From: Desulfobacteraceae bacterium
Lineage (GTDB): Bacteria > Desulfobacterota > Desulfobulbia > Desulfobulbales > Desulfobulbaceae
Direction of reading: 5' to 3'
Length of the DNA stretch: 63,161 bases
Assembly (NCBI GenBank): GCA_011372855.1
Contig: DSAE01000177.1
Coordinates: forward strand, 1 to 63,161
Shown: piece by piece, positions 8,579 through 45,081 of the stretch
Layout of the letters: the number at the start of each line of letters is the position of its first letter
Numbering within the stretch: position 1 is the stretch's first letter
The notes under the pieces: generated by a model
Seen by the model: only the letters and a program-made list of their open reading frames with translations
The model's database searches: none
What the model was told of the DNA's origin: nothing
Position numbers and translations under genes: made by a program

Positions 8579-8620
8579 CTTTTTCTCCTTTGACGATGAA
8601 TGAAAAGGATTGGCCCGGGC

Positions 8621-8655
8621 AAAAAAAAACCCGGACCGACGGCGGTCGATCCGGG
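8621..8655 (-). terminator. Intrinsic terminator (riboswitch expression platform)
   Basis: Minus strand reads CCCGGAUCGAC-CGCC-GUCGGUCCGGG (11-bp stem) followed by U9. It lies about 40 nt upstream of the pterin-binding gene start. Confidence 0.7.
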
Positions 8656-8711
8656 ATGTCCCTTTTTTATCCACAGATACACCATGGCTTTCCCTGGTCC
8701 GCGAGGAAATC

Positions 8712-8900
8712 CAACAGGCAACAAGGCAGGTCTTCTGACTTTCCCGATCAATCAGCGGCCTTCCCGTCTCCCGGCGCGGGCCGGTCACAGACAGTGGCAT
8801 CGGTGCTGACGATCTTTTCCCGACAGGGGGGATCACAGCGGCGGGCCCGTCCCTGATTTGCACAGGGTTCCCTTTTCATCCGCGCAGGCGGAACCTTATT
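8712..8900 (-). promoter_or_regulatory. Cobalamin (B12) riboswitch
   Basis: Minus strand contains GGUUCC...AAAGGGAACCCUGUGCAAAUCAGGGACGGGCCCGCCGCUGU...CCACUG...GGGAAGGCC...AGUCAGAAGACCUGCC. These are the conserved core, the GGGAAGGC element and the B12 box of the cobalamin riboswitch class. Confidence 0.85.
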
Positions 8901-8907
8901 GGCTCCG

Positions 8908-8936
8908 ATCTTACCGGCAAAAGGGAGGCCTGTCAA
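8908..8936 (-). promoter_or_regulatory. Sigma-70-type promoter for the riboswitch leader
   Basis: Minus strand has TTGACA, a 17-nt spacer, then TAAGAT, immediately upstream of the riboswitch. Confidence 0.5.
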
Positions 8937-29456: not shown

Positions 29457-29533
29457 AAAAAGTTTTACATGTATGTTACGTTTGGCTTCCCAGGCTGGAA
29501 GTCAGGGACATTCCTTTTTTGCACCCGATGGTT

Positions 29534-32185
29534 ATGACCGGAAACGAAATACGCGCCCGTTTTTTACAGTTTTTTGCCGCCAGGGGCCATGCCGTGGTCG
29601 ACGGCTCCCCGCTCGTGCCGCTCGACGACCCGACCCTGCTGTTCACCAACGCCGGCATGGTGCAGTTCAAGCGGGTGTTCATGGGCGAAGAACAGCGGGA
29701 CTATGTCCGGGCCGCGACCTGCCAGCGGTGCGTTCGGGCGGGCGGCAAGCATAACGATCTGGACAATGTCGGTCACACCGCCCGCCATCACACCTTTTTC
29801 GAGATGCTGGGCAATTTTTCCTTCGGTGATTATTTCAAGAAAGAGGCGATTGCCTTTGCCTGGGAATTTCTGACCGTGGAGATGGGTCTCGACCCGGAAA
29901 AGCTGTGGGTTTCCGTCTTCCGGGAGGATGACGAGGCCTATGAACTGTGGGAGGGTGTTGACAACCTGCCGCCCGGCCGGATCGTCCGCATGGGCGAGGA
30001 GGATAATTTCTGGGCCATGGGCGATACCGGTCCCTGCGGTCCCTGTTCGGAGATCCATATCGACCAGGGACCCGAGGTCGGCTGCGGCCGTTCCGACTGC
30101 GGCGTGGCCTGTGATTGCGACCGCTTCCTTGAGCTGTGGAACCTGGTGTTCATGCAGTTTTACCGGGACGAAAGCGGCGCCATGACCCCCCTGCCCAAAC
30201 CGTCCATCGATACGGGCATGGGACTCGAGCGGATCGCCGCGGTCATCCAGGGCAGGCGGAATAATTTCGAATCTGATCTCTTCCGGCCGCTGATTGACCG
30301 CATTGCCCTTCTTTCCGGCAAAACCTACGGTGCCGACGAGCAGGACAATGTCGCCATGCGGGTTATCGCCGATCATGCCCGGGCAGCAGCGTTTCTGGTC
30401 GCCGACGGCGTTCTGCCCTCCAATGAAGGACGGGGATACGTCCTGCGCCGGATCATGCGGCGGGCCATCCGCTTCGGCAGGTTCCTGGGGCTGAGCGACC
30501 GATTCTTTGCGGAAATCTGCCTGCTCGTCGTCGACATGATGCAGGCCAGTTACCCTCATCTGACCGGTGCCCGTGAACTGCTCGGCAAGGTGGCCGGCAA
30601 CGAGGAAGGCCGCTTCGGGGAGACCCTGGATCACGGACTGGCGATCCTTGCGGACGAAATCGACCGCCTGGGCAGAGAGCAGGACGCCTCCCCGGTGATT
30701 GACGGGGAGTTTATTTTCAAGCTCTACGATACCTACGGATTTCCGGTCGACATTGTCCGGGACGTGGCGCTGGAACGCGGCATCGGGGTGGACGAGGCGG
30801 GTTTTCAGAGGGCCATGGAGGTGCAGCGGGAACAGTCCAAGCGGTCCTGGAAGGGAAGCGATGTGGCCCATCTTCAGGAAGGGGTTGTTCAGCTTTTGCG
30901 GCAGGGGTTGGAAAGCGAGTTTGTCGGATATGCCCGGAAAACGGTCGATTCGATCGCCGCGGGGCTGGTGGATGGCGCCGGCCGGCTGGTTGACCGGGTC
31001 GAGGCGGGCGAACCGGTGCTGGTCTGCTGCCCCCGGACGGTTTTCTATTCCGAGGCGGGCGGTCAGGTGGGGGACAGCGGCATCATCACCGGCCCCCATG
31101 GCCGGATTGAAGTGGCCAACACCAAAAGGGTGGCCGACCGGATCGTGCTGCACGAAGGCAGGGTGATCGAGGGGTTCATCGCCCGGGGGGATGCGGTTGT
31201 CCTGACCGTCACCTCGGAGCGCCGGAACGATATCGCCCTCAACCATACCGCCACCCATCTTCTCCATGCCGCCATGAAAAAGATCCTCGGAGATCATATC
31301 AAGCAGGCGGGTTCCCTGGTTGAGGAAGAGCGGCTGCGCTTTGACTTTACCCATTTTTCTCCGCTGACCGGGGAGGAAATCAGGGCCGTTGAAGAAGCCG
31401 TCAATGCGAAGATCCGCGAAAACATTCCGGTGGCGACCGCCGTGCAATCCCGGGATCGGGCCGTAGCCGAGGGCGCCACCGCCCTGTTCGGCGAAAAATA
31501 CGGAGATGAGGTGCGGGTCGTTTCGGTGGGGGACTTCAGCAAGGAGTTGTGCGGCGGCACTCATGTCAAGGCGACGGGTGAGATCGGCTTTTTCAAGATC
31601 ATCGCCGAGACGGGCATAGCCGCAGGGGTGAGGAGAATCGAGGCTGTGACCGGAGCCCGGGCGGTGGCCTGGGTGCAGGACCTGGTCGACAGGAGCAACG
31701 AAGTTGCGGCCGCCCTTACCGCTCCGTTGCCGGCGGCCGCCGATAAAATCAGGTCTCTTCTGCGGCAGCAGAAGGAACTGGAGAAAAAGGTCGCCGGCCT
31801 CACCGCCCGGCTGGCCCTGGCGGATATGGATCAATTGTTGCAGCAGGCTGTTGTGGTCGACGGCGTTCGGGTCATTGCGGCCGAGTTGCCCCTTGATTCC
31901 CCCAAAACCCTGCGGGAAATCGGCGACCGCGTCCGGGACGCCATGGGCAGCGGGATCGCTGTTCTGGGGGGTGTTCTGGACGGCAAGGCCGCTCTGCTGG
32001 CGCTGGTCAGCAAAGACCTGACCGGCAGGATCAGGGCCGGGGAGGTGGTGAACGGTACCGCCAGGATCGTCGGTGGCAAAGGGGGCGGGCGTCCCGACAT
32101 GGCCCAGGCCGGCGGTCCGAGAGGCGACAAAGTATCCGAGGCGATCAGGCGGGTGCCGGAAGTGGTCCGGCAGATCCTGCAATGA
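29534..32185 (+). CDS. alaS: Alanine--tRNA ligase
   Basis: MTGNEIRARFLQFF..., FTNAGMVQFK, HHTFFEMLGNFSFGDYFK, HTATHLLH editing motif and a C-terminal DHHA1 region. ATG 29528 is also possible as start. Confidence 0.95.
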   Translation: MTGNEIRARFLQFFAARGHAVVDGSPLVPLDDPTLLFTNAGMVQFKRVFMGEEQRDYVRAATCQRCVRAGGKHNDLDNVGHTARHHTFFEMLGNFSFGDYFKKEAIAFAWEFLTVEMGLDPEKLWVSVFREDDEAYELWEGVDNLPPGRIVRMGEEDNFWAMGDTGPCGPCSEIHIDQGPEVGCGRSDCGVACDCDRFLELWNLVFMQFYRDESGAMTPLPKPSIDTGMGLERIAAVIQGRRNNFESDLFRPLIDRIALLSGKTYGADEQDNVAMRVIADHARAAAFLVADGVLPSNEGRGYVLRRIMRRAIRFGRFLGLSDRFFAEICLLVVDMMQASYPHLTGARELLGKVAGNEEGRFGETLDHGLAILADEIDRLGREQDASPVIDGEFIFKLYDTYGFPVDIVRDVALERGIGVDEAGFQRAMEVQREQSKRSWKGSDVAHLQEGVVQLLRQGLESEFVGYARKTVDSIAAGLVDGAGRLVDRVEAGEPVLVCCPRTVFYSEAGGQVGDSGIITGPHGRIEVANTKRVADRIVLHEGRVIEGFIARGDAVVLTVTSERRNDIALNHTATHLLHAAMKKILGDHIKQAGSLVEEERLRFDFTHFSPLTGEEIRAVEEAVNAKIRENIPVATAVQSRDRAVAEGATALFGEKYGDEVRVVSVGDFSKELCGGTHVKATGEIGFFKIIAETGIAAGVRRIEAVTGARAVAWVQDLVDRSNEVAAALTAPLPAAADKIRSLLRQQKELEKKVAGLTARLALADMDQLLQQAVVVDGVRVIAAELPLDSPKTLREIGDRVRDAMGSGIAVLGGVLDGKAALLALVSKDLTGRIRAGEVVNGTARIVGGKGGGRPDMAQAGGPRGDKVSEAIRRVPEVVRQILQ

Positions 32186-32217
32186 AAAGCGTTTCCCGAA
32201 AGCGGGGTTGAAAAGGC

Positions 32218-33483
32218 ATGCATGCCGGAACGGAACAGCACAGAATAGTCATCACAGGGGTCGGCCTCGCCGCTCCGAACGCTTCGAATCTGCCTGAATT
32301 CAGGACCAAACTTCTGGAGGGACGGAGCGAAATCAGGATGATCGAGCTGCGATATATGCAGCCTTCTCCGGCCGGAGTATGCACGTTTGATGAAACGAAA
32401 TACCGCAGGAAAAGGGAGAACAAGCGCGGCACCAGGGCCGGGTGCATCGGGGTTTACTGCGCCAATGAGGCCCTGATTGACGCGGGAATCGATTTCTCCG
32501 GCTACGACAGGGCCAGGACCGGAGTATACATAGGGCTGACGGAACACGGAACCGTTGAGACCGAAAACGAGGTCTACAATATCAGCCAGTACGGCTACAA
32601 TATCGATTACTGGACCCATCATCATAATCCCCGCACCGTCCTCAATAACCCCGCCGGCGAAATCACCATGAACCTGGGGATCACCGGGCCGCATTATTCA
32701 GTGGGAGCGGCCTGCGCCGCCGGCAATGCCGCCCTGATCCAGGGGGTGCAGATGTTCAGGCTCGGGGAAGTGGACCTGGCGATGTGCGGCGGCATCTCCG
32801 AGTGTGTCGGCTCCTTCGGCATTTTTGCGAGCTTCCGCGCCCAGGGGGCCCTGGCCGAACATCATGATCCCGCCAGGGCCAGCCGTCCCTTCGATGCCGC
32901 CCGCAACGGTATTGTCATTTCCGAGGGCGGCTGCGTCTTCATCCTGGAGCGCCTGGACAGGGCGTTGGCCCGCGGCGCCAAGATTTACGGGGAAATTACG
33001 GGATACGCCATGAATTCCGATGCCCGAGATTTTGTTCTCCCTTACGGGGAGCGCCAGGCCCAATGCATGGAGCTGGCCCTGCGGCGGGCGGGCCTGGCCC
33101 CAGGTCAGGTGACGATCATCAATACCCATGCCACCGGGACCAGGCAGGGTGACGTGGAAGAGTGCAGGGCGATCAGGCAGGTATTCGGCGAGTCGGTCCC
33201 TCCCTGGATCAACAATACCAAGTCCAATATCGGCCATGCCATGGGTGCGGCCGGCGTCCTCGAGCTGGCGGGCAATCTGCCCTCATTTGTTGACAACATG
33301 GTCCATCCGACTATAAATTTGGATCAGCCCGATCCGGAGTGCGCTCTTGCCGGTCTGGTGGTCGATGCGCCGAAACAGCTTGACAGGGTTGATGTGATTT
33401 TGAATAACTCCTTCGGCATGGTCGGCATAAATTCCGTGGTTATCGTCGAACGGTATGCCCACGACCGGAGACAAGCGTCATAG
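32218..33483 (+). CDS. Beta-ketoacyl-ACP synthase, KAS I/II (FabF/FabB-like) type
   Basis: Cys-His-His active-site blocks: VGAACAAGNAAL, NTHATGT, NIGHAMGAAG. Starts 32 nt after the alaS stop. Confidence 0.9.
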   Translation: MHAGTEQHRIVITGVGLAAPNASNLPEFRTKLLEGRSEIRMIELRYMQPSPAGVCTFDETKYRRKRENKRGTRAGCIGVYCANEALIDAGIDFSGYDRARTGVYIGLTEHGTVETENEVYNISQYGYNIDYWTHHHNPRTVLNNPAGEITMNLGITGPHYSVGAACAAGNAALIQGVQMFRLGEVDLAMCGGISECVGSFGIFASFRAQGALAEHHDPARASRPFDAARNGIVISEGGCVFILERLDRALARGAKIYGEITGYAMNSDARDFVLPYGERQAQCMELALRRAGLAPGQVTIINTHATGTRQGDVEECRAIRQVFGESVPPWINNTKSNIGHAMGAAGVLELAGNLPSFVDNMVHPTINLDQPDPECALAGLVVDAPKQLDRVDVILNNSFGMVGINSVVIVERYAHDRRQAS

Positions 33484-33545
33484 CCGGAGAAACCGGACGC
33501 TGCAATCCATTATTCACTGTATGGAGTGAGAGATAGAGGAAGAGT

Positions 33546-33797
33546 ATGACCAGGAACGAGATCAAAAACGTCATTTTGGAAATTATTGAAGATATAGACG
33601 AGGAAGCGGATTTTGACAGCCTGGAGGCGGACAAGCCGCTCCGGGACCAGCTGGATCTCGATTCCATGGACTTCCTGGATATCGTCATGGAACTGCGCAA
33701 ACGATACAAGCTGCAGATCCCGGAAGAGGAGTACCCCGAACTGTCCACCCTGAACAGTTGCGTCAATTATCTTGAACCGAAGCTCAAAGACTTTTGA
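33546..33797 (+). CDS. Acyl carrier protein (non-canonical, cluster-dedicated)
   Basis: 83 aa and acidic, with the phosphopantetheine site LDLDSMDFLDIVMEL. It differs from housekeeping AcpP sequences. Confidence 0.85.
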   Translation: MTRNEIKNVILEIIEDIDEEADFDSLEADKPLRDQLDLDSMDFLDIVMELRKRYKLQIPEEEYPELSTLNSCVNYLEPKLKDF

Positions 33798-33912
33798 AAT
33801 ACGGTAAAACTGTCTCTCTCCCCCCTGCTTCGTTCGCTGTACCGCCGGCCGGACCGGGGGGCCTCCCGCAGGTATTTCGTTGTGCCCGATCAGCCGCCGG
33901 CAGCCTGAGCCC

Positions 33913-35295
33913 ATGGCTGATTATCAGCTGATCATCATCGGCGCCGGCCTCTCCGGTCTTGCCGCCGGCATCCGGGCGGCCCGCTTCGGCCTCAAGGTGT
34001 TGATCGTCGAACAGCACTGGCAGCCCGGGGGCCTCAATTCCTTTTACTTCCGTCAGGGACATCTCCTTGAAACCGGCCTGCACGCAATGACCAATTACGC
34101 TCCGCCGGAAGAAAAACGCGCCCCGTTGAACAGGCTGTTCCGGCAGCTGCGCCTGTCCCGCCGATCTTTCCGGACCCATGAGCAGATCTGCTCGGAGATC
34201 GTCTTTCCGGACCGTACACTCAGATTCTCCAATGATCCCGATCTGTTGACCGAGGATATCTCCCGGGAGTTCCCTGGGGCGGCGGACGGTTTTCGCCGGC
34301 TGCTGGACATGGTCAGGGACTATGATCCCTTTGCCCCGGCCCCGTGGCGCTCGGCCCGCCGGTTTCTCGACGGGGTCCTGCCCGACGGCCGGCTGGCGGA
34401 CATGCTCCTGCTGCCCCTCATGGTGTACGGCAACAGCGAGGAAGAGGACATGGACCTCGGCCAGTTCGTCATCATGTTCCGGGCGCTTTTTCTTGAGGGT
34501 CTGTTCCGCCCGGCGGAAACGATCAAGGAATTTCTTGACATGCTGGTCGACCATTACACGGCTTTCGGCGGGGAAATACGCTTCCGGGCGGGAGTGAAAA
34601 GGATTCTGCGCCGCGGCGACAGGGTTGACGGCGTCGTGCTGCACAATGGCGAACGGATCACCGCCGGAAGCGTCCTGTCAACCGCCGGCATTCCGGCAAC
34701 GGCCGACCTTGCGGACTGGGACATTGACAGGAGCGCCTACCGGGGAAAAATGAGCTTCATGGAAACGATCTACCTGCTGCCCCTGCGGCGCGGGGCCTCC
34801 ATCAGGAACGACCGCACCATCATTTTTTTCAACCACGGGGAACACTTCGCCTACCGCTGCCCCGGCGAAGCGTTGGAAACGTCCTGGGGGGTGATCTGCT
34901 TCCCGGGGAATTTCAAAGGGCTGCCCGGGACCGATCCCTTTCAGGTCAGGGTGACCAATGCCGCCAACTACGAGGTGTGGAAAGCGGCGGCGCCGGGGGA
35001 ATACGAAATGATGAAGGAACGGTGGCGGGAGCGGTCCGCCGACCAGGTCGGGAAAATTATTGGGAATTTCCGGCAGGATGTAGTATATGTTGACAGTTTT
35101 ACCCCGATGACCATTGAACGGTTTACCGCCAAGGCCGGGGGAGCCGTGTACGGAAGCCCGGTGAAGTTGAAGGACGGACGCACCCATTGCGCCAATCTCT
35201 TTATCGCCGGCACCGACCAGGGGTATCTCGGGATTGTCGGCGCCATGCTTTCCGGCGTCACCATCATCAACCGGCACCTGCTGCGGCAGGAGTGA
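33913..35295 (+). CDS. FAD/NAD(P)-dependent oxidoreductase, phytoene desaturase (CrtI) family, copy 1
   Basis: N-terminal dinucleotide fold [37 protein letters not shown]. About 460 aa with a C-terminal [16 protein letters not shown] block typical of the amine-oxidase/CrtI fold. Confidence 0.8.
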
Positions 35296-35350
35296 GGGCA
35301 GCGACGACCTCGACCCGGCTTATACAGTGAACATTCCTACCGCGTTGGCA

Positions 35351-36757
35351 ATGGATAGAACATCTCCCGATGGGATCAGCGACCATTATGACGTCATAGT
35401 CGTCGGCTCGGGGCTGGGCGGCCTGACCTGCGCCAACCGCCTGGCCTGCGCCGGTCACTCGGTCCTGCTCCTCGAGCACCATTCCCGCCTGGGCGGACTG
35501 GCTACCTGGTTCAGGAGAAAAGGACACATTTTCGACGTTTCCCTGCACGGCTTCCCCTTCGGCATGGTGAAGACCTGCAAAAAATACTGGAACAGGGCGA
35601 TTCGCGACTCCATCGTCCAACTGAAGAATATTGTCTTCGACAACCCCCAGTTTTCCCTGACCACAACCTTCAGCCGGGATGATTTCACCCGCATCCTCCA
35701 GGAAAAATTTGCTGTTTCCCGTTCCACGGTGGAAGATTTTTTCGACACCGTCGGCAGGATGAATTTTTACGACGACCGGACCATGACCACCAGGGAGCTG
35801 TTTGCCTGGTTTTTCCCCGGCCGTTCCGATGTCCACCGTCTGCTGATGGAGCCCATCACCTATGCCAACGGCTCGACCCTCGACGACCCCGCCATTACGT
35901 ACGGCATCGTCTTTTCCAATTTCATGAGCAGGGGCGTGTTTACCTTTCAGGGCGGGACCGACAGACTGATCGGCCTGATGGCCGACGAGCTGCGGCAAAA
36001 CGGGGTGACGATCCGCACCGGCGCCCGGGTGGACCGGATTGTCGTCGAACAGGGGCAGGCAAAAGGGGTGGTGACCGGCGGCCGGTTCATCGCCGCCTCG
36101 GCGGTGGTCTCAAACAGCGGTATTACCAATACGGTGAACAACCTCGCCGGCCGGGATGCTTTTTCCCGGCAGTTTCTCGACAAATTTGATGCGGTGAAGG
36201 TCAACAATTCGAGCTGCCAGGTCTATTTCGGCATCCGCCGGGGCGAATCGATTCCCGATATCGGGGACCTGCTGTTCACCTCGACGGCGGAGGAATTTTC
36301 CTCAGAGGAGATGCTCGACATGGAAACGAAAAGCAGGACCTTCTCCGTCTATTATCCCAAGACGCGTCCCGACCGTCCTGATTTTACGGTTGTGGCCTCG
36401 ATGAACGCCAACTATGACGATTGGGCCGGGCTGGACGAGGAGGCGTACCGGGAGGCCAAGGCCGCCATGATCGAACGCTGCTTCACCGATCTGGAACGCT
36501 ATGTTCCCGGGATCAGAGGGAGGGTTGACTGGGTCGAGGCGGCGACTCCCCGGACCTTCAACCGCTACACGCTGCATACCAAGGGAACCTCCTTCGGCAC
36601 CAAGTTTGAAGGGCTCGATATCTCGCGTTCCCTGTTCAAGGAAGTACAGGGACTGTTTCATGTCGGTTCGGTGGGCATCATCATGAGCGGTTGGCTGGGG
36701 GCGATCAATTACGGCGTCATCGTCGCCAATGATGTGGACGGCCTCCTGCGGAGCTGA
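35351..36757 (+). CDS. FAD/NAD(P)-dependent oxidoreductase, phytoene desaturase (CrtI) family, copy 2
   Basis: [37 protein letters not shown], about 468 aa, with C-terminal [18 protein letters not shown]. Start set at ATG 35351 to avoid overlap with copy 1. Confidence 0.8.
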
Positions 36758-36764
36758 TATTGCC

Positions 36765-37505
36765 ATGAAAGATTTCCAGGGACAGAAAGCGGTCGTAACC
36801 GGAGCCACAAGGGGGATAGGGAAAGCCATAGCATCGGCCCTGCTTCGGCGGGGGGCGACGGTCATCGGCATCTACGGTTCTGACGGGGAGGCCGCCCAGG
36901 GCTTCCTGGAGGAAAGCGGGGAGGTGTCAGGCCGCCTGTTGCTGTACCAATGCGACGTCAGCAGCTACGGGGCGGTCGAAGCCCTGTACGGAAAAATCGA
37001 AGAGCGGTTCGAGACCATCGACATCCTGGTGAACAACGCCGGAATCAGGCGGGACGGGGTTCTGGCCATGATGCCCGAGGAAGACTGGCGGCGGGTGGTC
37101 GACGTCAACCTGACCGGCGGCTATATCATGTCCAAGTTCGGGGTCCGGCTCATGCTCAAGCAGCGCTACGGCCGCATCATTTTCATCACTTCGCCCATGG
37201 CCCATCTGGGCTTTGCCGGGCAGTCGAACTATGCCGCCTCCAAGGCGGGCCAGATCGGGATGATGAAGGCCCTGTCGCGGGAAACCGCCAAACGGAATAT
37301 CACGGTCAACTGCATTTCTCCCGGCTTCATCGAAACCGAACTGCTGGATGATCTGCCCGAGAACCTGGTCAGGGAGTACAGAAACATGGTCCCGCTCAGG
37401 CGGTTCGGCAAACCCGAGGAGGTGGCCGAGGCGGTGCTCTTCCTGGCCGGGCGGCAGGCGACGTATGTCACCGGCGCGGTGCTGGAAGTGACCGGAGGGA
37501 TATGA
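36765..37505 (+). CDS. 3-oxoacyl-ACP reductase (FabG-like SDR)
   Basis: AVVTGATRGIGKAIA, NNAGI and the YAASKAG catalytic Tyr-Lys. 246 aa. Confidence 0.9.
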   Translation: MKDFQGQKAVVTGATRGIGKAIASALLRRGATVIGIYGSDGEAAQGFLEESGEVSGRLLLYQCDVSSYGAVEALYGKIEERFETIDILVNNAGIRRDGVLAMMPEEDWRRVVDVNLTGGYIMSKFGVRLMLKQRYGRIIFITSPMAHLGFAGQSNYAASKAGQIGMMKALSRETAKRNITVNCISPGFIETELLDDLPENLVREYRNMVPLRRFGKPEEVAEAVLFLAGRQATYVTGAVLEVTGGI

Positions 37506-37957
37506 TGGACGGGCAAGGGGAGCGCTACATTTACGACCGCATCCCCCATCGGCCGCCCTTTCTGTGGCTGGACCGGGTGCTGGAAATCACCCCTGATGCG
37601 ATCAGGGCGGAAAAAACGATACCCGCCGACCTCGACCTGTTCCGGGGGCATTACCCCCACCATCCCCTCATGCCCGGGGTCCTCCTGTGCGAGGCCGTTT
37701 TCCAGGCCGGGGCGGTTCTGCTTGCCGAGCGGGAACAAACCGGGGAGGGCGCCATGCCGGTCCTGACCAGGATAACGGCGGCGCGGTTCAAAAGGGAGGT
37801 CCCTCCCGGGGCAACCATGGTCATCACCGCCAGGCTCGTCGAGCGCGTGGGCCCGGCCTGGTTCCTGAAGGGATCGGTCCGGGTCGGGGACAGAACGGCG
37901 CTGCAGGTCGAGTTTGCCTGCGCCGTCAAGGAAGAAAGGGGCAAGGGAAGCCGATGA
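37502..37957 (+). CDS. 3-hydroxyacyl-ACP dehydratase (FabZ-like hot-dog fold)
   Basis: [13 protein letters not shown] and [22 protein letters not shown] match the FabZ catalytic His and motif. ATGA overlap with the upstream gene. Confidence 0.8.
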
Positions 37958-38754
37958 GCTTTCTTGGACTCGAGGGCAAAAAAATTGTCGTCTTCGGCCT
38001 CGCCAACCGGAAATCCGTGGCCTGCGCGGTCGGCCGGGTGCTGGACGAGGTCGGGGCCGAGGTGATTCACGTGGTCCGCAGCCCGCAGCGGGAGGAGGCG
38101 GCCCGGAAGCTGTTCCCGCGCTCGCCCGTCTACACCTGTGATGTGGAGAATGAGCGCAACATCGTCCGGGTCCGGGATGCGATTGCCGCCGACGGCCATG
38201 GATCGATCAGCGGCATTGTCCATTCCATCGCCTATGCCAATTATTCTGAAGGGTTGAAGCCCTTTCACGAGACCCTGAAGAAGGATTTCCTGCAGGCCGT
38301 GGACATCTCCTGTTTTTCGCTGATCGCCATCAGCAATCATTTCCGCGACCTGCTCGAGGAACATGCCTCGGTCGTCACCATTTCCATTTCCACCACCAGG
38401 ATGGCCGCGGAAAATTACGGGTACATGGCCCCGGTCAAGGCGGCCCTGGAATCGTCTCTCTGTTTTCTGGCCAAAAGTTTTTCCGCTTTTTCCCAAGTCC
38501 GCTTCAACGCGGTCTGTCCGGGGCTGCTGAAGACATCCGCCTCCGCCGGCATCCCAGGCTACGTGGACAGCTACCTGTTTGCGGAACAGGCCATTCCCCG
38601 GAAAAAGGCTCTTCAGTCCAGGGAGGCAGCCGATGTCGCCGCATTTCTCCTGTCCGGGCGGTCGTCGGGCATCAACGGCCAGTGTCTCGTGGTTGACGCC
38701 GGCATGGGATTCAATTACTTTGACCGGCAGATTGTGGCCGGCGTCGTCGGCTGA
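37954..38754 (+). CDS. Enoyl-ACP reductase (FabI-like SDR)
   Basis: [30 protein letters not shown] and [14 protein letters not shown] align block-for-block with the E. coli FabI blocks VHSIGFA and NYNVMGLAKASLEA. ATGA overlap with the upstream gene. Confidence 0.8.
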
Positions 38755-38833
38755 CCGGAACGGCGGCCGTATTCCGGTACAAGTGGAACCGGGTGTGAAG
38801 CGGAGCGGGAACATTATCCGTCATATCGGGGGA

Positions 38834-39031
38834 ATGATCCGGCGGACCATCGCCGTTTTTCTCTCCAGGGAGACTCCCCTGTATGTCAAGGCGCTGCTGG
38901 CCGCCGGTCTGCTCTACGCGCTGTCGCCCTACGACCTGATTCCCGACTGGATCCCGGTGGCCGGCCTCATGGACGATCTGGCCCTTGCCGCCCTGCTGAT
39001 CAGCTGGGCCTCGGGCTACAGACCGTCCTGA
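38834..39031 (+). CDS. DUF1232 (YkvA-like) small membrane protein
   Basis: YALSPYDLIPDWIPVAGLMDDLALAALL is the DUF1232 signature. The start may lie further upstream (GTG about 38796). Confidence 0.55.
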   Translation: MIRRTIAVFLSRETPLYVKALLAAGLLYALSPYDLIPDWIPVAGLMDDLALAALLISWASGYRPS

Positions 39032-39088
39032 TCCGGGGTCAAGGTTGCCGAACCTCTACAATTAAGACTTTTCCCGGTTATCTTGTTC

Positions 39089-40123
39089 ATGCGATACGAA
39101 CATGTCTGTCTCAACAGCTTCGGATATGAACTGCCTCCCAATGAGGTGGGTTCCGCCCGGCTCGAGGAGCGGCTGCTGCCGCTCTATCAGCGCTTGAAAC
39201 TGCCGCCGGGCCGTCTGGAACTGATGAGCGGCATTGCCGCCCGGCGCTTCTGGCACGCGGGAATGCGGCCGAGCGCGGCCGCGGCCCTGGCCGGCGCCAA
39301 AGCCATCAAGGCTTCCGGCGTCGATCCGGCAACAATCGACTGCCTTCTTTTTACCTCCGTCTCCCGGGACATGCTGGAACCGGCGAGCGCCTCGTTCGTC
39401 CACCGCACCCTTGGCATTGCGCAGCGGTGCCAGGTCTTTGACATCTCCAATGCCTGCCTGGGCTTTCTCAACGGCATGATCGTGCTGGCCAACATGATTG
39501 AACTGGGACAGGCGCGGCGCGGTCTTATCGTTGCCGGGGAAACCGCGGAAGATCTTGTTGATTCGACGATCCGTCATCTGCTGGACGACCGGACCCTGAC
39601 CCGCAGGGACATCAAGCCGCTGTTCGCCTCGCTGACCATCGGCTCCGGGGCCGTGGCCCTGGTCATGGAGGACCGCCGGCTCAATGACACCGGCCATTAT
39701 CTGGCCGGGAGCGCCTGCTATGCCAACACAACCCACAACGATCTCTGCCAGGGCGGGCAGAATGCCGAGCAGGGGACCCTGATGTCCACCGCCTCCGAGG
39801 AGCTTCTTGCCCGGGGAGTTGAAACCGCCGCCCGATGCTGGAGTGATTTTCTCGCCGCACTTCGGTGGGAGAAAGAGTCCATTGACCGTTTTTTCTGCCA
39901 TCAGGTCGGCAGGGCCCATGCCCAGCTTCTGTTTCAGACCCTGGCCATCGATCCCGCCAGAAATTATGAGACCCTCGCCATGCTGGGGAATGTCGGTTCG
40001 GTCTCCGCGCCCATCACCATGGCCATGGGGATCGACAACGGCGCCCTCCGCCCCGGGGAAAGGGCCGCCCTTCTGGGGATAGGCAGCGGCATCAATTCGC
40101 TTATGCTGGGCATCGAATGGTAA
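39089..40123 (+). CDS. oleA: OleA, FabH-like thiolase for head-to-head acyl condensation
   Basis: Thiolase-fold KAS III pattern with active-site Cys (FDISNACLGFLNG), His (FFCHQVGRAH) and Asn (LGNVGSVSAP). It is the first gene of an A-B-C-D set. Confidence 0.8.
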   Translation: MRYEHVCLNSFGYELPPNEVGSARLEERLLPLYQRLKLPPGRLELMSGIAARRFWHAGMRPSAAAALAGAKAIKASGVDPATIDCLLFTSVSRDMLEPASASFVHRTLGIAQRCQVFDISNACLGFLNGMIVLANMIELGQARRGLIVAGETAEDLVDSTIRHLLDDRTLTRRDIKPLFASLTIGSGAVALVMEDRRLNDTGHYLAGSACYANTTHNDLCQGGQNAEQGTLMSTASEELLARGVETAARCWSDFLAALRWEKESIDRFFCHQVGRAHAQLLFQTLAIDPARNYETLAMLGNVGSVSAPITMAMGIDNGALRPGERAALLGIGSGINSLMLGIEW

Positions 40124-41004
40124 TGCCGGGCCATCCCCATCTTTTTCAGTATCCCTTTGAACCGGGAAGCCGCCTGCTGGGGAACGGGCACCGTATGAGC
40201 TATGTCGACGAGGGGCGGGGCAACCCGGTGGTCTTGCTCCATGGCAACCCGAGCTGGTCCTATCTGTACCGGAACCTCATATCCCTGCTCAGCCGTTCGC
40301 ACCGGTGCATCGCCCCGGATCACCTGGGCTGCGGCCTGTCCGACAAGCCGCAGGATTACCCGTACCGTCTGGCCGACCATATCGACAACCTGGAGGATTT
40401 TCTGGAACAGATGGCTGTCGGGGGCTGCGTCCTGGTGATGCATGACTGGGGGGGCGCCATCGGCATGGGCTGGGCCGCCAGGCATGTTGAAAAAATTGCC
40501 GGGCTGGTTGTGATGAACACCGCCGCCTTCAGGTCGCGTCTGCTGCCGCGGCGGATAGCGGTCTGCCGCCTGCCGGTGCTCGGGGCCTTCCTGGTTCGCG
40601 GCCTCAACCTTTTCGCCCGCGGGGCCACGGTTATGGCCGTGCGGAAAAAAATGGCTCCGGGCGTCAGGTCCGGTTTTCTCTTTCCCTACGATTCCTGGGC
40701 CAGCAGGATTGCACTGCATCGCTTTGTCCAGGACATTCCGCTCAACGAGGGCCATCCTTCCTGGCCGACGCTGCTGCGGGTGGAGGAAGGCCTGGGGACG
40801 CTGGCCGGCAAGCCCATGCTTATCTGCTGGGGAGGCCGGGATTTCTGTTTCACCGAGGCCTTTTACCACGAATGGCGGCAGCGCTACCCCGATGCCGAGG
40901 GCCACTATTTTGCCCAGGCCGGACATTACCTGCTCGAAGATGAACTCAACGAAGTGGGCGGCAGGATAAACCGTTTTCTCAAGACCATCGGCTGGACGGC
41001 ATGA
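40117..41004 (+). CDS. oleB: OleB, alpha/beta hydrolase (haloalkane dehalogenase-like beta-lactone decarboxylase)
   Basis: LLHGNPSWSYLYRN and MHDWGGAIG (nucleophile elbow with Asp). Overlaps the oleA stop. Confidence 0.8.
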   Translation: MVMPGHPHLFQYPFEPGSRLLGNGHRMSYVDEGRGNPVVLLHGNPSWSYLYRNLISLLSRSHRCIAPDHLGCGLSDKPQDYPYRLADHIDNLEDFLEQMAVGGCVLVMHDWGGAIGMGWAARHVEKIAGLVVMNTAAFRSRLLPRRIAVCRLPVLGAFLVRGLNLFARGATVMAVRKKMAPGVRSGFLFPYDSWASRIALHRFVQDIPLNEGHPSWPTLLRVEEGLGTLAGKPMLICWGGRDFCFTEAFYHEWRQRYPDAEGHYFAQAGHYLLEDELNEVGGRINRFLKTIGWTA

Positions 41005-42650
41005 ACGGCGACAGGCAATCCATTGATTACAATATCGCCCTGGCACTGGAGGAGGCCGCAGCCCCCCGGACCGCCAAGGCAGCCCTGGTCATGGGCAGGG
41101 ACGGCAGCTATGGGAGCTGGACCTTCGGAGAACTGAGGGAAAATACCGTCACCTATGCGGCTGCCCTCGGGGAGGCGGGGGTCAGGCAGGGACAACGGGT
41201 CATGCTCATGGTCCGGCCGTCAATGGAGTTTGTCTGCCTCACCTTTGCCCTTTTTCGCCTGGGCGCGACGGTCATTCTCATCGATCCGGGCATGGGCTAT
41301 CGCAATCTGGTGCGCTGCGTGGGCCGCGTCCGGCCAGACTCGCTGGTCGCCATACCCCTTGTCCATCTGTTGAGCAGGATATTTCCTCAACCGTTCAGCA
41401 CTGTCCGGATCAGGGTCTGCGTGGGCCGGTCATTCCCCGGTTCGGGCCCATCCCTGCGCAGGCTGGAGGCCCTCGCACCACGCGGAGAAACCACCCGTTT
41501 CGCTGCGGGCCGGGACGATCTTGCGGCGATCATTTTCACCACCGGTTCAACCGGTCCCCCGAAAGGGGTCAGGTATACGCATGGCATATTCCATGCCCAG
41601 TTGCGGCTGATCAGGGAGTATTACCGCATCGGCCCGGGCGAGGTGGATCAGCCCTGTTTTCCTCTTTTCGCCCTGTTTTCCACCGCCCTCGGGGCAAGGG
41701 CCGTCATTCCGGAAATGAACCCCGCCAAACCCGCCCGGGTAAACCCGCGCCTGTTTGTCCGCTCGATTCTTGACCAGGGAGTGACCTATTCGTTCGGTTC
41801 TCCCGCAATATGGGAGGTGGTCAGCCGCTACTGTCTCGAGCATGACATTGTTTTGCCGGTGCGGAAAATACTGATGGCCGGGGCCCCGGTTTCCGGCGCC
41901 CTGGTTGAGCGGGTCAGCCGCATCATGGACCCCCGCGGGGAAATACATACCCCGTACGGCGCCACCGAATGTCTGCCGGTGGCCTCCGTTTCCGGCAGGG
42001 AGATCCTTGGCGAAACGTGGGATCGTACCAGGCAGGGTGGAGGAGTCTGCGTCGGCCGGCCCCTGCCGGGCATCGAGGTCAGGATCATCCGGCCGGAAGA
42101 CGGCCCCATCCGGTCGTGGCGGGAGGCCTGGGAACTGCCTGCCGGCGAAATCGGGGAGATCGTTGTCAAGGGGCCGGTCGTGACCGAGGTCTACGATCAT
42201 GACGACCGGGAGACCCTGCTGGCCAAGATCAGGGACAAGAAGGGCTTCTGGCACCGGATGGGAGACATGGGCTATCTCGACGATGAGGGCAGGTTATGGT
42301 TCTGCGGCCGCAAGGCCCACCGGGTCAGGACGGAGCAGGGGGTCATGTACACCATTCCCTGTGAAGCCATTTTCAATGAACATCCCGAGGTCCGGCGTTC
42401 CGCTCTCGTCGGCGTGGGCAAGGAAGGCGCGCAGCGGCCGGTGCTGGCCGTCGAGCTCGCCGAAGGAAAAAAAAGAACCGACAGACTGGTGGCCGAACTG
42501 CGCGCGTTGGCCCTGGACAACGATTTGACAAGATCCATTGAGACGTTTCTGGTGCATCCGTCTTTTCCCGTGGATATCCGCCACAATGCCAAGATATTCC
42601 GCGAACGGCTGGCCCTCTGGGCCGAGGATCAGCTTCAGGCGCAGGGCTGA
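41001..42650 (+). CDS. oleC: OleC, AMP-dependent synthetase/ligase-fold beta-lactone synthetase
   Basis: ANL-superfamily motifs: IIFTTGSTGPPKGV, TPYGATE, MGDMGYLDDEGRLWFCGRK. ATGA overlap with oleB. Confidence 0.8.
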   Translation: MNGDRQSIDYNIALALEEAAAPRTAKAALVMGRDGSYGSWTFGELRENTVTYAAALGEAGVRQGQRVMLMVRPSMEFVCLTFALFRLGATVILIDPGMGYRNLVRCVGRVRPDSLVAIPLVHLLSRIFPQPFSTVRIRVCVGRSFPGSGPSLRRLEALAPRGETTRFAAGRDDLAAIIFTTGSTGPPKGVRYTHGIFHAQLRLIREYYRIGPGEVDQPCFPLFALFSTALGARAVIPEMNPAKPARVNPRLFVRSILDQGVTYSFGSPAIWEVVSRYCLEHDIVLPVRKILMAGAPVSGALVERVSRIMDPRGEIHTPYGATECLPVASVSGREILGETWDRTRQGGGVCVGRPLPGIEVRIIRPEDGPIRSWREAWELPAGEIGEIVVKGPVVTEVYDHDDRETLLAKIRDKKGFWHRMGDMGYLDDEGRLWFCGRKAHRVRTEQGVMYTIPCEAIFNEHPEVRRSALVGVGKEGAQRPVLAVELAEGKKRTDRLVAELRALALDNDLTRSIETFLVHPSFPVDIRHNAKIFRERLALWAEDQLQAQG

Positions 42651-42770
42651 GGGCCGTTCGGATGTGCCGGGTCGGCACGGTGACAGCGGAAAGCACAAAC
42701 GGAGGGCGGGAGCCCCGCCCGGCCTGGCCGCGGAGAGGCCGGTTTTCCGCAGCAGTTGGGGAGGTGACAG

Positions 42771-43802
42771 GTGCGTAAGGTTCTGGTTACCGGCGGCGGA
42801 GGTTTCGTCGGGCTGGCTGTCGTTGCCAGGCTGGCGGCCGAAAAGGTGGAGACAACCGTCGTCGGCCGGCACCACTACAGGGCTGCGGAAGCGCTTGGCG
42901 CCCGCTGCCTGGTCGGCGACATCCGGGACCCCCATTTCATGGACCGGGCAACGGCCGGCTGCGACACGGTGTTTCATGTCGCTGCCAAGGCCGGTATCTG
43001 GGGGAGCCGGAACGATTACTTTTCCATCAATGTCGGCGGGACGGAGAACGTGATAAGCGCCTGCCGCAAGCACGGGGTTCGGTCGCTGATCCATACCAGT
43101 ACGCCGAGCGTTGTTTTTGACGGCAGGTCCATCGAAGGGGGGGACGAAAGTCTGCCGTACAGCCGAAAACCCCTCTGTCATTACGCGGCGTCCAAGATCG
43201 TGGCGGAACAGAAGGTCCTGGCCGCCAACGGCGATGGTCTCAGAACCGTTGCCCTGCGTCCCCATCTGGTCTGGGGGCCGCAGGACACCCAGATCATTCC
43301 CCGGCTCCTTGAGCGGGGCCGGCGCGGTACCCTGCGCATGGTCGGCGGCGGCGGCAACCGGGTCGATATTTCCTACATAGACAATGTTGCCGCAGCCCAT
43401 ATCCTGGCGGCCAGGAACCTTGAGGAGTCGGGTTCCGCCGCCGGGCAGCCGTTTTTCATCTCCCAGGGGGAGCCGGTGGTGCTGTGGGGGTGGATCAACG
43501 AATTGTTTGACAGGGTGGGCATCCCGAGGGTCAGGAAAGAAATTTCGTTCCGCACGGCCTACCGGCTCGGCTGGCTGTTCGAAAAACTGTTCACCCTGCT
43601 GCGCCTGGAAAACGAACCGCAAATGACGCGGTTCCTGGCCGAACAACTGGCCGAATCCCACTGGTTCTCCATAGAAAGGGCGAGACTGGTACTGGCCTAC
43701 CGCCCGGAGGTGCCGACAGGGGAGGGGGTGGACCGCCTTGTTCGCTGGCTCGAAACCTCGGTCGGCGCGGAGAAAGAACAGCCTCGTTCTTTTTTTTCCT
43801 GA
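42771..43802 (+). CDS. oleD: OleD, NAD(P)-dependent 3beta-HSD/epimerase-family reductase
   Basis: GTG start after GGGGAGG. VLVTGGGGFVG Rossmann motif and YAASK catalytic dyad. 343 aa. Confidence 0.8.
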   Translation: MRKVLVTGGGGFVGLAVVARLAAEKVETTVVGRHHYRAAEALGARCLVGDIRDPHFMDRATAGCDTVFHVAAKAGIWGSRNDYFSINVGGTENVISACRKHGVRSLIHTSTPSVVFDGRSIEGGDESLPYSRKPLCHYAASKIVAEQKVLAANGDGLRTVALRPHLVWGPQDTQIIPRLLERGRRGTLRMVGGGGNRVDISYIDNVAAAHILAARNLEESGSAAGQPFFISQGEPVVLWGWINELFDRVGIPRVRKEISFRTAYRLGWLFEKLFTLLRLENEPQMTRFLAEQLAESHWFSIERARLVLAYRPEVPTGEGVDRLVRWLETSVGAEKEQPRSFFS

Positions 43803-43957
43803 AAGGATAAGTTCAAGGGAAAAGACTTTCGGATTTATGAAAAAAACTATTTGACAGCTTGTTATTTTTTCAGTAGTTATGCAGTTCGGAAGCTGAATCC
43901 TCATTCACTTTATTCTCTGGCCGGCAAATTTTTATTCAGTGATCAGGAGTAGTTGAG

Positions 43958-44389
43958 ATGATTACCATTGATATCACTATGTTCATTCACATTGTCAACA
44001 TGATTGTGTTGATGATTGTACTCAACGCGATTCTCTACAAACCCGTCCAATCCATACTGCGCAAGCGCCAGGAAAAACTGGAGACCCTCAGCAAGGACGT
44101 GGAGCAGTTCGAGGAAAATGCCCGTCACCGCCAGCAGGAAGTGGATAAGAAGATGAGGGAGGCCAGCGCCAGGGCCAAGCAGGCCCTGGACGGCGCCCGC
44201 AGCGAAGCCCAGGCGGCGGGAACCGTGCAGCTCGAAGCCGTTCGTTCCGAGGCGGAAGGCGAAAAGAAGAAACGACAGGCTGAAATTCATTCGCAGATCG
44301 AGGCCGCCCAGAAGGAACTCCGGGAGGCCACGTCCGAATTTGCCAATCAGATGGCAGGAAAGATTCTTGGAAGGAGTCTGGAAGCATGA
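43958..44389 (+). CDS. atpF2: F0F1 ATP synthase subunit b' (second b-type stalk subunit)
   Basis: Single N-terminal TM helix followed by a long charged coiled coil. First gene of the F1/stalk operon. Confidence 0.8.
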   Translation: MITIDITMFIHIVNMIVLMIVLNAILYKPVQSILRKRQEKLETLSKDVEQFEENARHRQQEVDKKMREASARAKQALDGARSEAQAAGTVQLEAVRSEAEGEKKKRQAEIHSQIEAAQKELREATSEFANQMAGKILGRSLEA

Positions 44390-45081
44390 GGCTGAAAGTG
44401 ACAAAATTCGTTTTTCCGCTGATGTTGGTCTTTGTGCTGGGCGGCATGCCTTTTTTGGCGGCCGTTTCCCAGGATGGCGGCGTTTCGTATGCCGCGGAAA
44501 CCGCAACCGTTGATGCCGGGCACGGTGTTGAAGCCGCGGTGGAGGGCCATGGCTCCGAAGACGCCCACGGCTCGGCCCATGGAGCGAAAAGCATCACGCC
44601 GGCCAAGCTGAAGGATCTCTTCTGGCGGACGGTCAATTTCATCGCCCTGCTCGTCATTCTCATCAAATTTCTGGCCAAGCCCATCGGCAATGCCATCGCC
44701 GGTCGGCAGCAGCAGGTCGTTGACGAACTGAAAACCCTGCAGGCCAAGCGGGACGCCGCCGAGCGTTCCTATAAGGAATTTGAGTCCCGGCTGGCAGGCA
44801 TGGAAAAAGAAATGGAAGTCGTGGTTCAGCGCGCCATAGCCCAGGCGGAGAACGAAAAGGCGAAAATCCTCCAGGATGCCGAAAAGGCCGCCGAGGATTT
44901 CAAGCGCCAGGCGGAAGCGGCGATCCAGGCTGAGATCGTCGAGGCCAAGCGCGCTCTGCGCGACGATATTGCCGATCAGGCGGCGGCCATGGCGGAAGAG
45001 TTGATCATTAAGAACCTGACACCGGAAGATCAGGTGAAGATAACCGAACAGTATCTTGACAGGATAGGTGCAGTACAGTGA
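44386..45081 (+). CDS. atpF: F0F1 ATP synthase subunit b, with N-terminal extension
   Basis: A b-type TM helix plus coiled coil, preceded by an extra hydrophobic segment and a His/Gly/Ala-rich stretch (GHGVEAAVEGHGSEDAHGSAHG). Confidence 0.8.
   Translation: MRLKVTKFVFPLMLVFVLGGMPFLAAVSQDGGVSYAAETATVDAGHGVEAAVEGHGSEDAHGSAHGAKSITPAKLKDLFWRTVNFIALLVILIKFLAKPIGNAIAGRQQQVVDELKTLQAKRDAAERSYKEFESRLAGMEKEMEVVVQRAIAQAENEKAKILQDAEKAAEDFKRQAEAAIQAEIVEAKRALRDDIADQAAAMAEELIIKNLTPEDQVKITEQYLDRIGAVQ

Follow-up and report, generated by a model that had tools for sequence, protein, structure and literature searches.

How can C31:8 and C31:9 polyenes be made, as they are in Desulfotalea, without a Pfa synthase and without oxygen? 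This question, posed in 2009 and probably touching many Planctomycetes, Verrucomicrobia and sediment Desulfobulbales as well, is raised again by an island of twelve genes in the genome of a Desulfobacteraceae bacterium, in which a cassette resembling a fatty acid synthase of type II (FAS-II) and containing two flavoproteins runs directly into the oleABCD genes for head-to-head olefin synthesis. The DNA analyzed here (the window) is a stretch of 63,161 nt, positions 1–63,161 of the forward strand of contig DSAE01000177.1 (assembly GCA_011372855.1). We propose that the island probably encodes one pathway in two modules: a type II system that supplies (poly)unsaturated chains on an acyl carrier protein (ACP) independently of Pfa, and the Ole enzymes that join these chains into an olefin. 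The locus also bears on what genes named 'phytoene desaturase' do within FAS-II and ladderane clusters and, with supplier and consumer in one 11.6-kb same-strand run, is a compact and directly clonable test object.

Gene content of the island

The island (32218–43802) is a run of twelve plus-strand genes with short gaps or overlaps, in the following order:

32218–33483, + strand: KAS, FabF-like elongating beta-ketoacyl-ACP synthase, 421 aa (Pfam ketoacyl-synt and Ketoacyl-synt_C)
33546–33797, + strand: ACP, 83 aa (Pfam PP-binding, E 6.5e-9)
33913–35295, + strand: Crt1, flavin adenine dinucleotide (FAD) flavoprotein of the amine-oxidase/phytoene-desaturase superfamily, 460 aa (Amino_oxidase, DAO, NAD_binding_8)
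35351–36757, + strand: Crt2, another flavoprotein of that superfamily, 468 aa (Amino_oxidase, NAD_binding_8); start ATG 35351, length as in its homologues
36765–37505, + strand: FabG-like 3-oxoacyl-ACP reductase (KR), 246 aa (adh_short_C2 and KR domains; YxxxK visible)
37502–37957, + strand: FabZ-like 3-hydroxyacyl-ACP dehydratase (DH), 151 aa (Pfam FabA-like domain)
37954–38754, + strand: FabI-like enoyl-ACP reductase (ER), 266 aa (adh_short_C2)
38795–39031, + strand: DUF1232 membrane peptide, 65–78 aa, starting at GTG 38795 or ATG 38834 (Pfam E 1.4e-12)
39089–40123, + strand: OleA, thiolase-fold head-to-head Claisen condensing enzyme, starting at 39083 or 39089
40117–41004, + strand: OleB, haloalkane-dehalogenase-like alpha/beta hydrolase, the beta-lactone decarboxylase (Abhydrolase_1)
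41001–42650, + strand: OleC, probable AMP-dependent beta-lactone synthetase (AMP-binding domain)
42771–43802, + strand: OleD, probable NADPH-dependent 2-alkyl-3-oxoalkanoate reductase (3Beta_HSD and Epimerase domains)

All twelve open reading frames (ORFs) of a preliminary description of this sequence are present in the ORF list and translations, and the four overlaps that it gave (37502/37505, 37954/37957, 40117/40123 and 41001/41004) are correct. The FabG-like gene probably starts at ATG 36765, which gives the 246 aa also seen in a close relative, and not at 36729; crt1 probably starts at ATG 33913, its ORF itself opening at TTG 33880. Families were assigned by profile hidden Markov model searches of Pfam and NCBIfam with the curated equivalog cut-offs as threshold, and these searches uphold the earlier assignments.

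The four terminal genes are probably genuine ole genes, as had been proposed. OleA scores 424 bits on NF006720 (cut-off 285) and aligns with the Xanthomonas campestris enzyme (3row, E 4e-59) through the motifs LEP, NACL, HQV and GN(V/I)G, retaining the equivalents of Glu117, the OleA-specific base, and of Cys143, His285 and Asn315. OleC is likewise above threshold on the related model NF006754 (653 against 478 bits), its second and third matches, the olefin beta-lactone synthetase equivalogs NF045786 and NF045785, reaching 547 and 504 bits against cut-offs of 900 and 850. The gene for OleB overlaps those for oleA and oleC; in NCBIfam and the PDB its product matches haloalkane dehalogenases best (173 bits on NF002938, cut-off 241), and it keeps the nucleophile Asp of the HDWG motif. 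The two best NCBIfam matches of OleD, the OleD equivalogs NF042422 and NF042423, give 372 and 359 bits against 580; its close relatives carry the JGI name '2-alkyl-3-oxoalkanoate reductase', with which the position of the gene agrees.

The five fab-like proteins all miss the main housekeeping equivalog cut-offs of NCBIfam. The top match of the KAS is FabF (TIGR03150), at 305 bits against 494; its Cys-His-His triad is intact, as the preliminary description had it, and together with a Lys aligns to Pseudomonas aeruginosa FabF (4b7v). The ACP (LDLDSMDFLDIVMEL) has the serine motif DLDSMDF, within LDLDSMDF, and falls below the cut-off of every NCBIfam ACP model, with at most 46 bits against 66 or more. 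The FabG-like protein reaches 279 against 298 bits on TIGR01830 and passes only a subfamily model, NF009466 (233 against 222). The FabZ-like protein scores 108 against 113 and 104 against 155 on the FabZ models, and its translation has the His/Glu motif GHYP...PGVLLCEA; the FabI-like protein attains 164 against 370 bits on the best FabI model and displays the Y-x6-K motif (YGYMAPVK). Because of these sub-threshold scores, and because some lineages have a cassette without FabG or without FabI, the genes look like a dedicated set of divergent paralogues and not the housekeeping set. The five fabB/F paralogues of D. psychrophila and the location of its FabI away from the cassette (PMC2649909) likewise speak, indirectly, against the island copies being the sole fab genes of their genome. 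Domain scans of the window ORFs found no housekeeping fab cluster and no pfa-like gene elsewhere in the window. FabD, a thioesterase and a phosphopantetheinyl transferase, which the island had been said to lack, are likewise not among the scanned window ORFs.

Cassette distribution and linkage to ole genes

A scan with a Crt2 alignment, taking one genome per species, yielded 80 loci, to which two others were added, and the resulting 82 loci were compared with all twelve island proteins. Their Crt2 orthologues are 58–84% identical to that of the island, and in 75 of them FAS-like genes adjoin Crt2 in the order KAS-ACP-Crt1-Crt2-(FabG)-FabZ-FabI, Crt2 standing alone in the other seven, which include the cable bacteria Electrothrix and Electronema. 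The cassette occurs in Desulfobulbales, Chloroflexota/Dehalococcoidia, Verrucomicrobiota/Opitutales, Planctomycetota, Nitrospinota and one metagenome-assembled genome (MAG) of Nitrospirota. Identities range over 60–83% for the KAS orthologues, spread over five phyla, 48–83% for FabI and 40–70% for Crt1, which is conserved beside Crt2; outside Desulfobulbales, KAS, Crt2 and FabI each stand at about 60% and Crt1 at about 43%.

Within Desulfobulbales, at least six other contigs have the same 12-gene order together with the flanking alaS and atpF genes, at 54–92% protein identity, and thus the island is more than a chance assemblage; the alaS-island-atpF arrangement itself is found in seven Desulfobulbaceae loci of the survey. 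The DUF1232 peptide, which lies between FabI and OleA in eight loci, is specific to the Desulfobulbaceae form. Elsewhere the cassette varies: FabG is absent from it in Opitutales and Planctomycetota, and FabI in the Desulfocapsa group. In Desulfocapsaceae such as loci L038 (12663–19470) and L087 (12842–18153) a cassette without FabI is followed by tolQ-tolR-tolA-tolB, a TPR gene and an FtsJ-like methyltransferase. A Crt2 relative at 50% identity heads a Crt2-FabG-FabZ-FabI block, and Crt2-(FabG)-FabZ-FabI is the most widely kept sub-block. One Chloroflexota cassette ends with a phosphopantetheinyl transferase gene of its own, which argues for a dedicated carrier system.

Ole genes are reportedly found in only about 2% of genomes. 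Of the 82 loci, 43 have at least one in the fetched flanks, and so do 23 of the 36 whose flanks are long. The arrangements differ from lineage to lineage: (i) in Desulfobulbaceae oleABCD is immediately 3' of the cassette; (ii) Opitutales show a FabI-OleA-OleB arrangement; (iii) in Dehalococcoidia an OleA-like gene with the Glu/Cys/His/Asn set intact is immediately 5' of KAS, four Dehalococcoidia/Chloroflexota loci having this gene first and some of them a second pair of OleA-like and KAS genes; (iv) in Phycisphaerae OleC-OleD is 5' of KAS; (v) in several MAGs of the Desulfocapsa type OleD/OleC is on the opposite strand, about 8 kb away, past tolQRAB; (vi) a Crt2 relative at 39% identity has Crt2-FabG-FabZ-FabI beside a convergent oleABCD. 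The two Chloroflexota loci with long flanks contain no oleB, oleC or oleD there, so that a ketone or another OleA-only product is possible in these organisms.

This survey of gene neighborhoods had been set beforehand as a test of whether the FAS/flavoprotein block belongs with the ole genes, and the proposal stands, the two being syntenic in several phyla. Since adjacency recurs in different arrangements, we take it as strong evidence, at the level of gene order, of a functional tie between cassette and ole genes, and since the synteny crosses phyla the pairing appears to be under selection.

The Desulfotalea psychrophila precedent

Part of this cassette has been noticed before. Rattray et al. 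(2009) described FAS-II clusters with phytoene-dehydrogenase-like genes in Kuenenia, D. psychrophila, Geobacter and Pelobacter, those of D. psychrophila being the tandem genes DP2405/DP2406 (PMC2649909). The same work reported C31:8 and C31:9 hydrocarbons as about 5% of the lipid of D. psychrophila and no ladderanes, a genome without a polyketide-synthase-type pathway for polyunsaturated fatty acids, with five fabB/F paralogues and with FabI located elsewhere, and proposed a new anaerobic route to polyunsaturated fatty acids (PMC2649909). A 2011 list of carriers of pfa-like genes contains neither Desulfotalea nor Opitutaceae nor Desulfobulbaceae (PMC3098273).

The D. psychrophila LSv54 locus of our survey (L087) reads KAS-ACP-Crt1-Crt2-FabG-FabZ, followed by the tol genes, with identities to the window of 73% (KAS), 74% (ACP), 47% (Crt1), 74% (Crt2), 59% (FabG) and 52% (FabZ). 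Judged by these identities and the shared gene order it is the orthologous cassette, and from the text of the 2009 paper we infer that its flavoprotein genes are DP2405/DP2406 (PMC2649909).

The preliminary description had held that an ACP-based elongation cycle and CrtI-like enzymes joined to ole genes were not described. For the FAS-II/phytoene-dehydrogenase cluster this is not so, both the cluster, as a bioinformatic finding, and the same functional idea having been published in 2009 (PMC2649909), and the Ole pathway is likewise established; the join to ole was not found in the literature searched. There, no report of oleABCD with a phytoene desaturase and none linking OleA, phytoene and Geobacter came up, and kuste3607 and DP2405 are mentioned only in papers on ladderanes. 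The features not found in that literature are the complete cassette with FabI fused to oleABCD in one same-strand run, the presence of the cassette in at least five phyla with variable ole linkage (to oleA above all), and a Crt2::FabZ fusion described below.

The related Kuenenia clusters have been proposed to serve ladderane synthesis (PMC2649909, PMC4790861), and in a review of 2026 the desaturase step still figures as a proposal. These clusters lend some color to the view that the cassette makes some other lipid on its ACP, for instance a polyene pigment, an aryl-polyene-like compound or a ladderane-type precursor, and that its adjacency to oleABCD is accidental. In line with this, relatives of the FabZ-like protein have weak ApeI/ApeP-like Pfam matches, the flexirubin model FlxB gives the FabG-like protein 231 bits, and one variant of the cassette has a radical SAM gene 3' of it. 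We nonetheless consider this view decidedly improbable: the linkage to ole has recurred independently in several phyla, the cassette has an ER whereas aryl-polyene systems do not, genes for methyltransferase, adenylation, glycosyl or radical SAM functions are absent among the scanned window ORFs, and D. psychrophila has no ladderanes (PMC2649909).

The flavoproteins Crt1 and Crt2

We turn to the two proteins on which the chemistry of the cassette would depend. Among the members of the phytoene-desaturase superfamily are desaturases, redox-neutral cis-trans isomerases and saturases, which act on the C=C bonds of lipid chains. Crt1 is a paralogue of Crt2 (25% identity, E 6e-26), and each has a GxGxxG FAD Rossmann motif at the N-terminus. 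The preliminary description had called them CrtI-family; their superfamily, domains and GxGxxG motif agree with this, whereas the family label is too specific, Crt2 scoring 94 and Crt1 53 bits on crtI_fam (TIGR02734), below its cut-off of 238, and both lying similarly far under the cut-offs of the carot_isom and CrtD models.

By sequence, the solved structure in the PDB that comes closest to Crt2 (E 3e-10) is the carotenoid desaturase 4rep. AlphaFold2, run for Crt2 on a shallow alignment (77–90% identity), gave a model of low confidence (predicted local distance difference test score 62); Foldseek searches with it again place 4rep first (TM-score 0.54), along with amine oxidases, the CrtI structure 4dgk and the plant phytoene desaturase. 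From such a model the match would place Crt2 in the CrtI/amine-oxidase superfamily only, with desaturases and isomerases not separated.

Could Crt1 and Crt2 then be ordinary carotenoid enzymes (phytoene or hydroxyneurosporene desaturases, or isomerases) that by chance lie among fab-like genes? Public annotation does name them 'phytoene desaturase family protein', and in NCBIfam they match the models for carotenoid isomerase, CrtD and the CrtI family best. With the crtI_fam scores given above, with FAS-like genes as constant partners, and with no phytoene synthase or prenyl-diphosphate synthase among the scanned window ORFs (some ORFs at the window ends being outside the scan), this can hardly be so; further, more distant Kuenenia homologues failed to replace CrtI in vivo (Javidpour et al. 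2016; PMC4790861).

Among the cassette genes, that for Crt2 is conserved best on sequence comparison and is also the most diagnostic. Its homologues at 77–97% identity number in the thousands, mostly from Desulfobulbaceae MAGs, which places the window in that family. The Crt2 protein family is narrow, with 181 clusters (at 50% identity) at E<1e-30 among 1.84 billion representatives. In one JGI metagenome (3300038404; locus L088, 2209–4086) a Crt2-like part, 51% identical to Crt2, is fused to a C-terminus that matches the FabZ-like protein of the window (36% identity, E 2e-31) in a protein of 625 aa, 3' of which are a FabI-like gene and then the radical SAM gene mentioned above. The fusion ties the flavoprotein to ACP-dependent dehydratase chemistry; as a single sequence, it may be an artefact of assembly or a frameshift.

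The fusion also bears on when the flavoproteins might act. Instead of working on ACP-bound chains, they might act after the condensation, on the finished olefin or ketone in the membrane, with KAS, ACP, KR, DH and ER making a saturated or monoene chain. The nearest characterized relatives and the structural match are indeed carotenoid desaturases and isomerases, whose substrates are long hydrocarbons with a central double bond, and JGI names one relative retinol 13,14-reductase. We regard this as improbable, since the crt genes lie between those for ACP and for KR, DH and ER and not beside ole, Crt2 is found fused to FabZ, many cassettes with Crt1 and Crt2 (Nitrospinota, D. psychrophila) have no ole gene nearby, and the cable-bacterial Crt2 has none in its contig.

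A more distant gathering of the same superfamily was seen in a Ca. Margulisiibacteriota MAG (L085, 223–14413), where a Crt2 relative at 30% identity is among four or five amine-oxidase-like genes, on a contig that also holds a KAS gene and a gene resembling Old Yellow Enzyme/2,4-dienoyl reductase; this run may be a different lipid-modifying cluster.

A proposed pathway and its alternatives

Briefly, the following mechanism is envisaged. The first module (32218–38754) would be a secondary type II fatty acid synthase, in which KAS, KR, DH and ER elongate a chain on the private ACP, with FabD, the phosphopantetheinyl transferase and malonyl-CoA borrowed from the cell. Crt1 and Crt2 would make or reposition double bonds on the ACP-bound intermediates without O2. 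In the second module, OleA would take acyl chains straight from the ACP and condense two of them head-to-head; OleD would reduce the 3-oxo acid, OleC close the beta-lactone and OleB decarboxylate it to a long-chain internal olefin. By analogy with D. psychrophila the expected product would be a polyunsaturated C31-type hydrocarbon, in which case the cassette would play the part that the Pfa synthase has in Shewanella and Geobacter. The passage of an ACP-bound product to OleA had been thought a puzzle; it has a published answer, namely that OleA condenses chains directly from ACP domains in vivo without need of an acyl-CoA synthetase (Allemann et al. 2019; PMC6463001), and direct use of acyl-ACP also explains the absence of a thioesterase.

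The preliminary description had suggested a specialized, possibly desaturated, chain condensed into an olefin or ketone as an anaerobe's alternative to the route through Pfa and Ole. This is still the best-supported reading, in which the flavoproteins may desaturate, isomerize or saturate; we infer that the cassette feeds OleA, that the product is polyunsaturated and that the flavoproteins act on ACP-bound chains.

As to what the flavoproteins do, our working guess is that they would be redox-neutral enoyl isomerases of the CrtISO kind. To build 16:4(4,7,10,13), the precursor of C31:9, cycles with full reduction (including that of a 2E,4Z-dienoyl intermediate) would have to be combined with cycles in which 2E is shifted to 3Z and cycles in which 2E is changed to 2Z. 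Two flavoproteins, a private KAS and a private ER would fit this scheme, because it needs two isomerizations and an ER acting on dienoyl intermediates. Alternatively, the flavoproteins might carry out CrtI-like allylic dehydrogenation with a quinone as acceptor, which would tend toward conjugated double bonds.

Taken jointly, these steps would amount to a new O2-independent, type II mode of polyunsaturation, with flavoproteins setting cis bonds on ACP-bound chains, that would have spread horizontally with oleA through at least five phyla and would serve as a compact substitute for the Pfa megasynthase. One flavoprotein would perform the 2E-to-3Z shift and the other the 2E-to-2Z change, or they would act by allylic dehydrogenation; KAS and ER would cope with enoyl and dienoyl substrates, and distant anammox relatives would do the same chemistry in ladderane clusters. 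We put this fuller version forward tentatively, as possible but with rather less than even confidence. If flavoproteins do install or isomerize double bonds on acyl-ACP, this would be new enzymology of anaerobic polyunsaturation; the engineering of polyunsaturated lipids and olefins would gain a small set of genes, and one class of sedimentary hydrocarbon biomarkers would gain a genomic marker.

Several observations weigh against a dedicated polyene pathway. Sequence does not distinguish among desaturase, isomerase and saturase for Crt1 and Crt2. No ole gene was found within 10 kb of the Nitrospinota cassettes, in the flanks of several Planctomycetota loci, or within 10 kb of the cassette of D. 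psychrophila; among the best 120 matches to a Desulfocapsa-type OleD there was none from D. psychrophila. The same-strand run may be one operon, for which consensus scans of promoters (6 against 3.3 in shuffled sequence) and terminators (11 against 13) are uninformative either way. Lastly, cable bacteria and certain Verrucomicrobia and Planctomycetes have Crt2 by itself. In Candidatus (Ca.) Electrothrix sp. AR5 (L002, 857–2263) and Ca. Electronema sp. TJ (L005, 10001–11407) a lone Crt2 of 77–78% identity adjoins a small PAS-domain gene, with no KAS, ACP, Crt1, FabZ, FabI or ole gene in the contig; hence a role outside the cassette, or decay of the cassette, may apply. That the loci with Crt2 only might hide Pfa-like genes was considered and rejected, the neighbors being unrelated (an M16 peptidase, RNase R, a TonB-dependent receptor and a PAS protein).

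The lone Crt2 genes also enter the case for a simpler role, in which the cassette is an anaerobic route to ordinary membrane monoenes, a non-orthologous replacement of FabA/FabB, FabM or FabX, with Crt2 as an enoyl-ACP isomerase or dehydrogenase; Ole would draw on the general acyl-ACP pool, and the ole neighborhood would reflect shared lipid regulation and no dedicated supply line. This would suit the abundance of 77–97% identical Crt2 across Desulfobulbaceae metagenome contigs, the position of the island between the core genes alaS and atp at the GC content of its flanks, the wide retention of the Crt2-(FabG)-FabZ-FabI sub-block, and the finding that some C16:1 and C18:1 isomers of D. psychrophila are isotopically like the polyenes (PMC2649909). 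It leaves unexplained why the rare ole genes are beside the cassette in four phyla in differing arrangements, and why two flavoproteins and a private KAS, ACP and ER are needed; further, no other source of polyunsaturated chains is known in D. psychrophila for the C31:8/9 that it makes (PMC2649909). On balance we judge the monoene role unlikely.

Comparison with known systems

The nearest functional parallel to the proposed supply line is the pairing of Pfa with OleABCD in Shewanella, Photobacterium and Geobacter bemidjiensis, which leads to hentriacontanonaene (C31:9). There too an ACP-based supplier feeds OleA, which draws its chain from the ACP, OleBCD finish the polyolefin and no O2 is needed. 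Pfa-like clusters often co-occur with ole genes (PMC3098273), and the supplier genes can be in tandem with oleABCD, as in P. profundum (PMC6463001) and in G. bemidjiensis, where pfaDABC-oleABCD-pfaE accompanies the production of C31:9 (PMC4882568). The suppliers themselves are different: that of the island consists of discrete, single-function type II proteins of 83–549 aa, whereas Pfa is a multidomain type I megasynthase. None of the island proteins has the Pfa-type multidomain make-up (KS-AT-ACPn-KR, KS-CLF-DH2, ER), and the only window ORF above 1000 aa is a phosphoenolpyruvate (PEP)-utilizing enzyme. The island is without an acyltransferase, a chain-length factor, tandem ACPs and FabA-type DH domains, and the window without a PfaE-type phosphopantetheinyl transferase and a PfaT thioesterase; conversely, its two CrtI-superfamily flavoproteins have no counterpart in Pfa.

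With the D. psychrophila cluster the island shares orthologous genes in the same order and the proposed role in anaerobic synthesis of polyunsaturated chains; unlike that cluster, it adds FabI and the DUF1232 peptide and is joined directly to oleABCD. The 2009 proposal predates the ole genes, assumed decarboxylation of a C32 acid, and centered on radical SAM enzymes, which are absent from the island, and on ladderanes. The ole systems that work on housekeeping FAS-II in Xanthomonas, Micrococcus and Chloroflexus have the OleA residues and probably the four Ole enzymes, in the same order, in common with the island; in contrast to it, they take chains from the general acyl pool, with no genes for a private KAS, ACP, KR, DH, ER or flavoprotein attached.

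The GxGxxG N-terminus, the Amino_oxidase architecture and a length of about 460–500 aa are shared by Crt1 and Crt2 with CrtI, CrtD, CrtISO and RetSat. Unlike these carotenoid enzymes, they have ACP-dependent FAS enzymes and OleA as constant partners, and their presumed substrate is a thioester-bound acyl chain. Other systems, in which a dehydratase/isomerase or a flavin enzyme keeps or moves a double bond during type II elongation in concert with a specialized KAS, are FabA/FabB, FabM and the Helicobacter flavoenzyme FabX. The cassette has no sequence relationship to FabA-type isomerase function, to FabM (a crotonase fold) or to FabX (nitronate-monooxygenase-like), and those systems, unlike the one proposed here, give phospholipid monoenes.

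Genomic setting

The island is flanked by alaS upstream (29519–32185) and by ATP synthase genes downstream (from 43958), with the b-type subunits b and b' (43958–44389 and 44386–45081, both + strand) opening the atp operon right after oleD; the second of these has an N-terminal extension of about 75 residues. Between the alaS stop and the KAS start are 32 nt (32186–32217), a gap that is 25 nt in a close relative, and the island may be transcribed by read-through from alaS or from a promoter inside it. GC content is uniform over island and flanks (0.59–0.63). A mobile or recently acquired island was considered and rejected, the GC content being that of the flanks and alaS and atpF being kept with the island in relatives. 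Long minus-strand ORFs (e.g., 42294–43904 and 37651–38814) were likewise dismissed as shadow ORFs of well-supported plus-strand genes in GC-rich DNA.

Elsewhere in the window, only the last ~500 residues of the PEP-utilizing enzyme (12727–16974, + strand, 1415 aa) carry domains, PPDK_N and PEP-utilizer mobile, while the first ~900 match nothing in Pfam. A 387-aa ORF (7700–8863, − strand) without Pfam match has a cobalamin riboswitch (100 bits; 8708–8913, − strand) at its 5' end, and by this arrangement would be a B12-regulated gene of no known family. Genes for class A RNase P RNA (2671–3041, − strand, 318 bits) and tRNA-Met (5589–5665, − strand) are also present, and thus the window belongs to the core chromosome.

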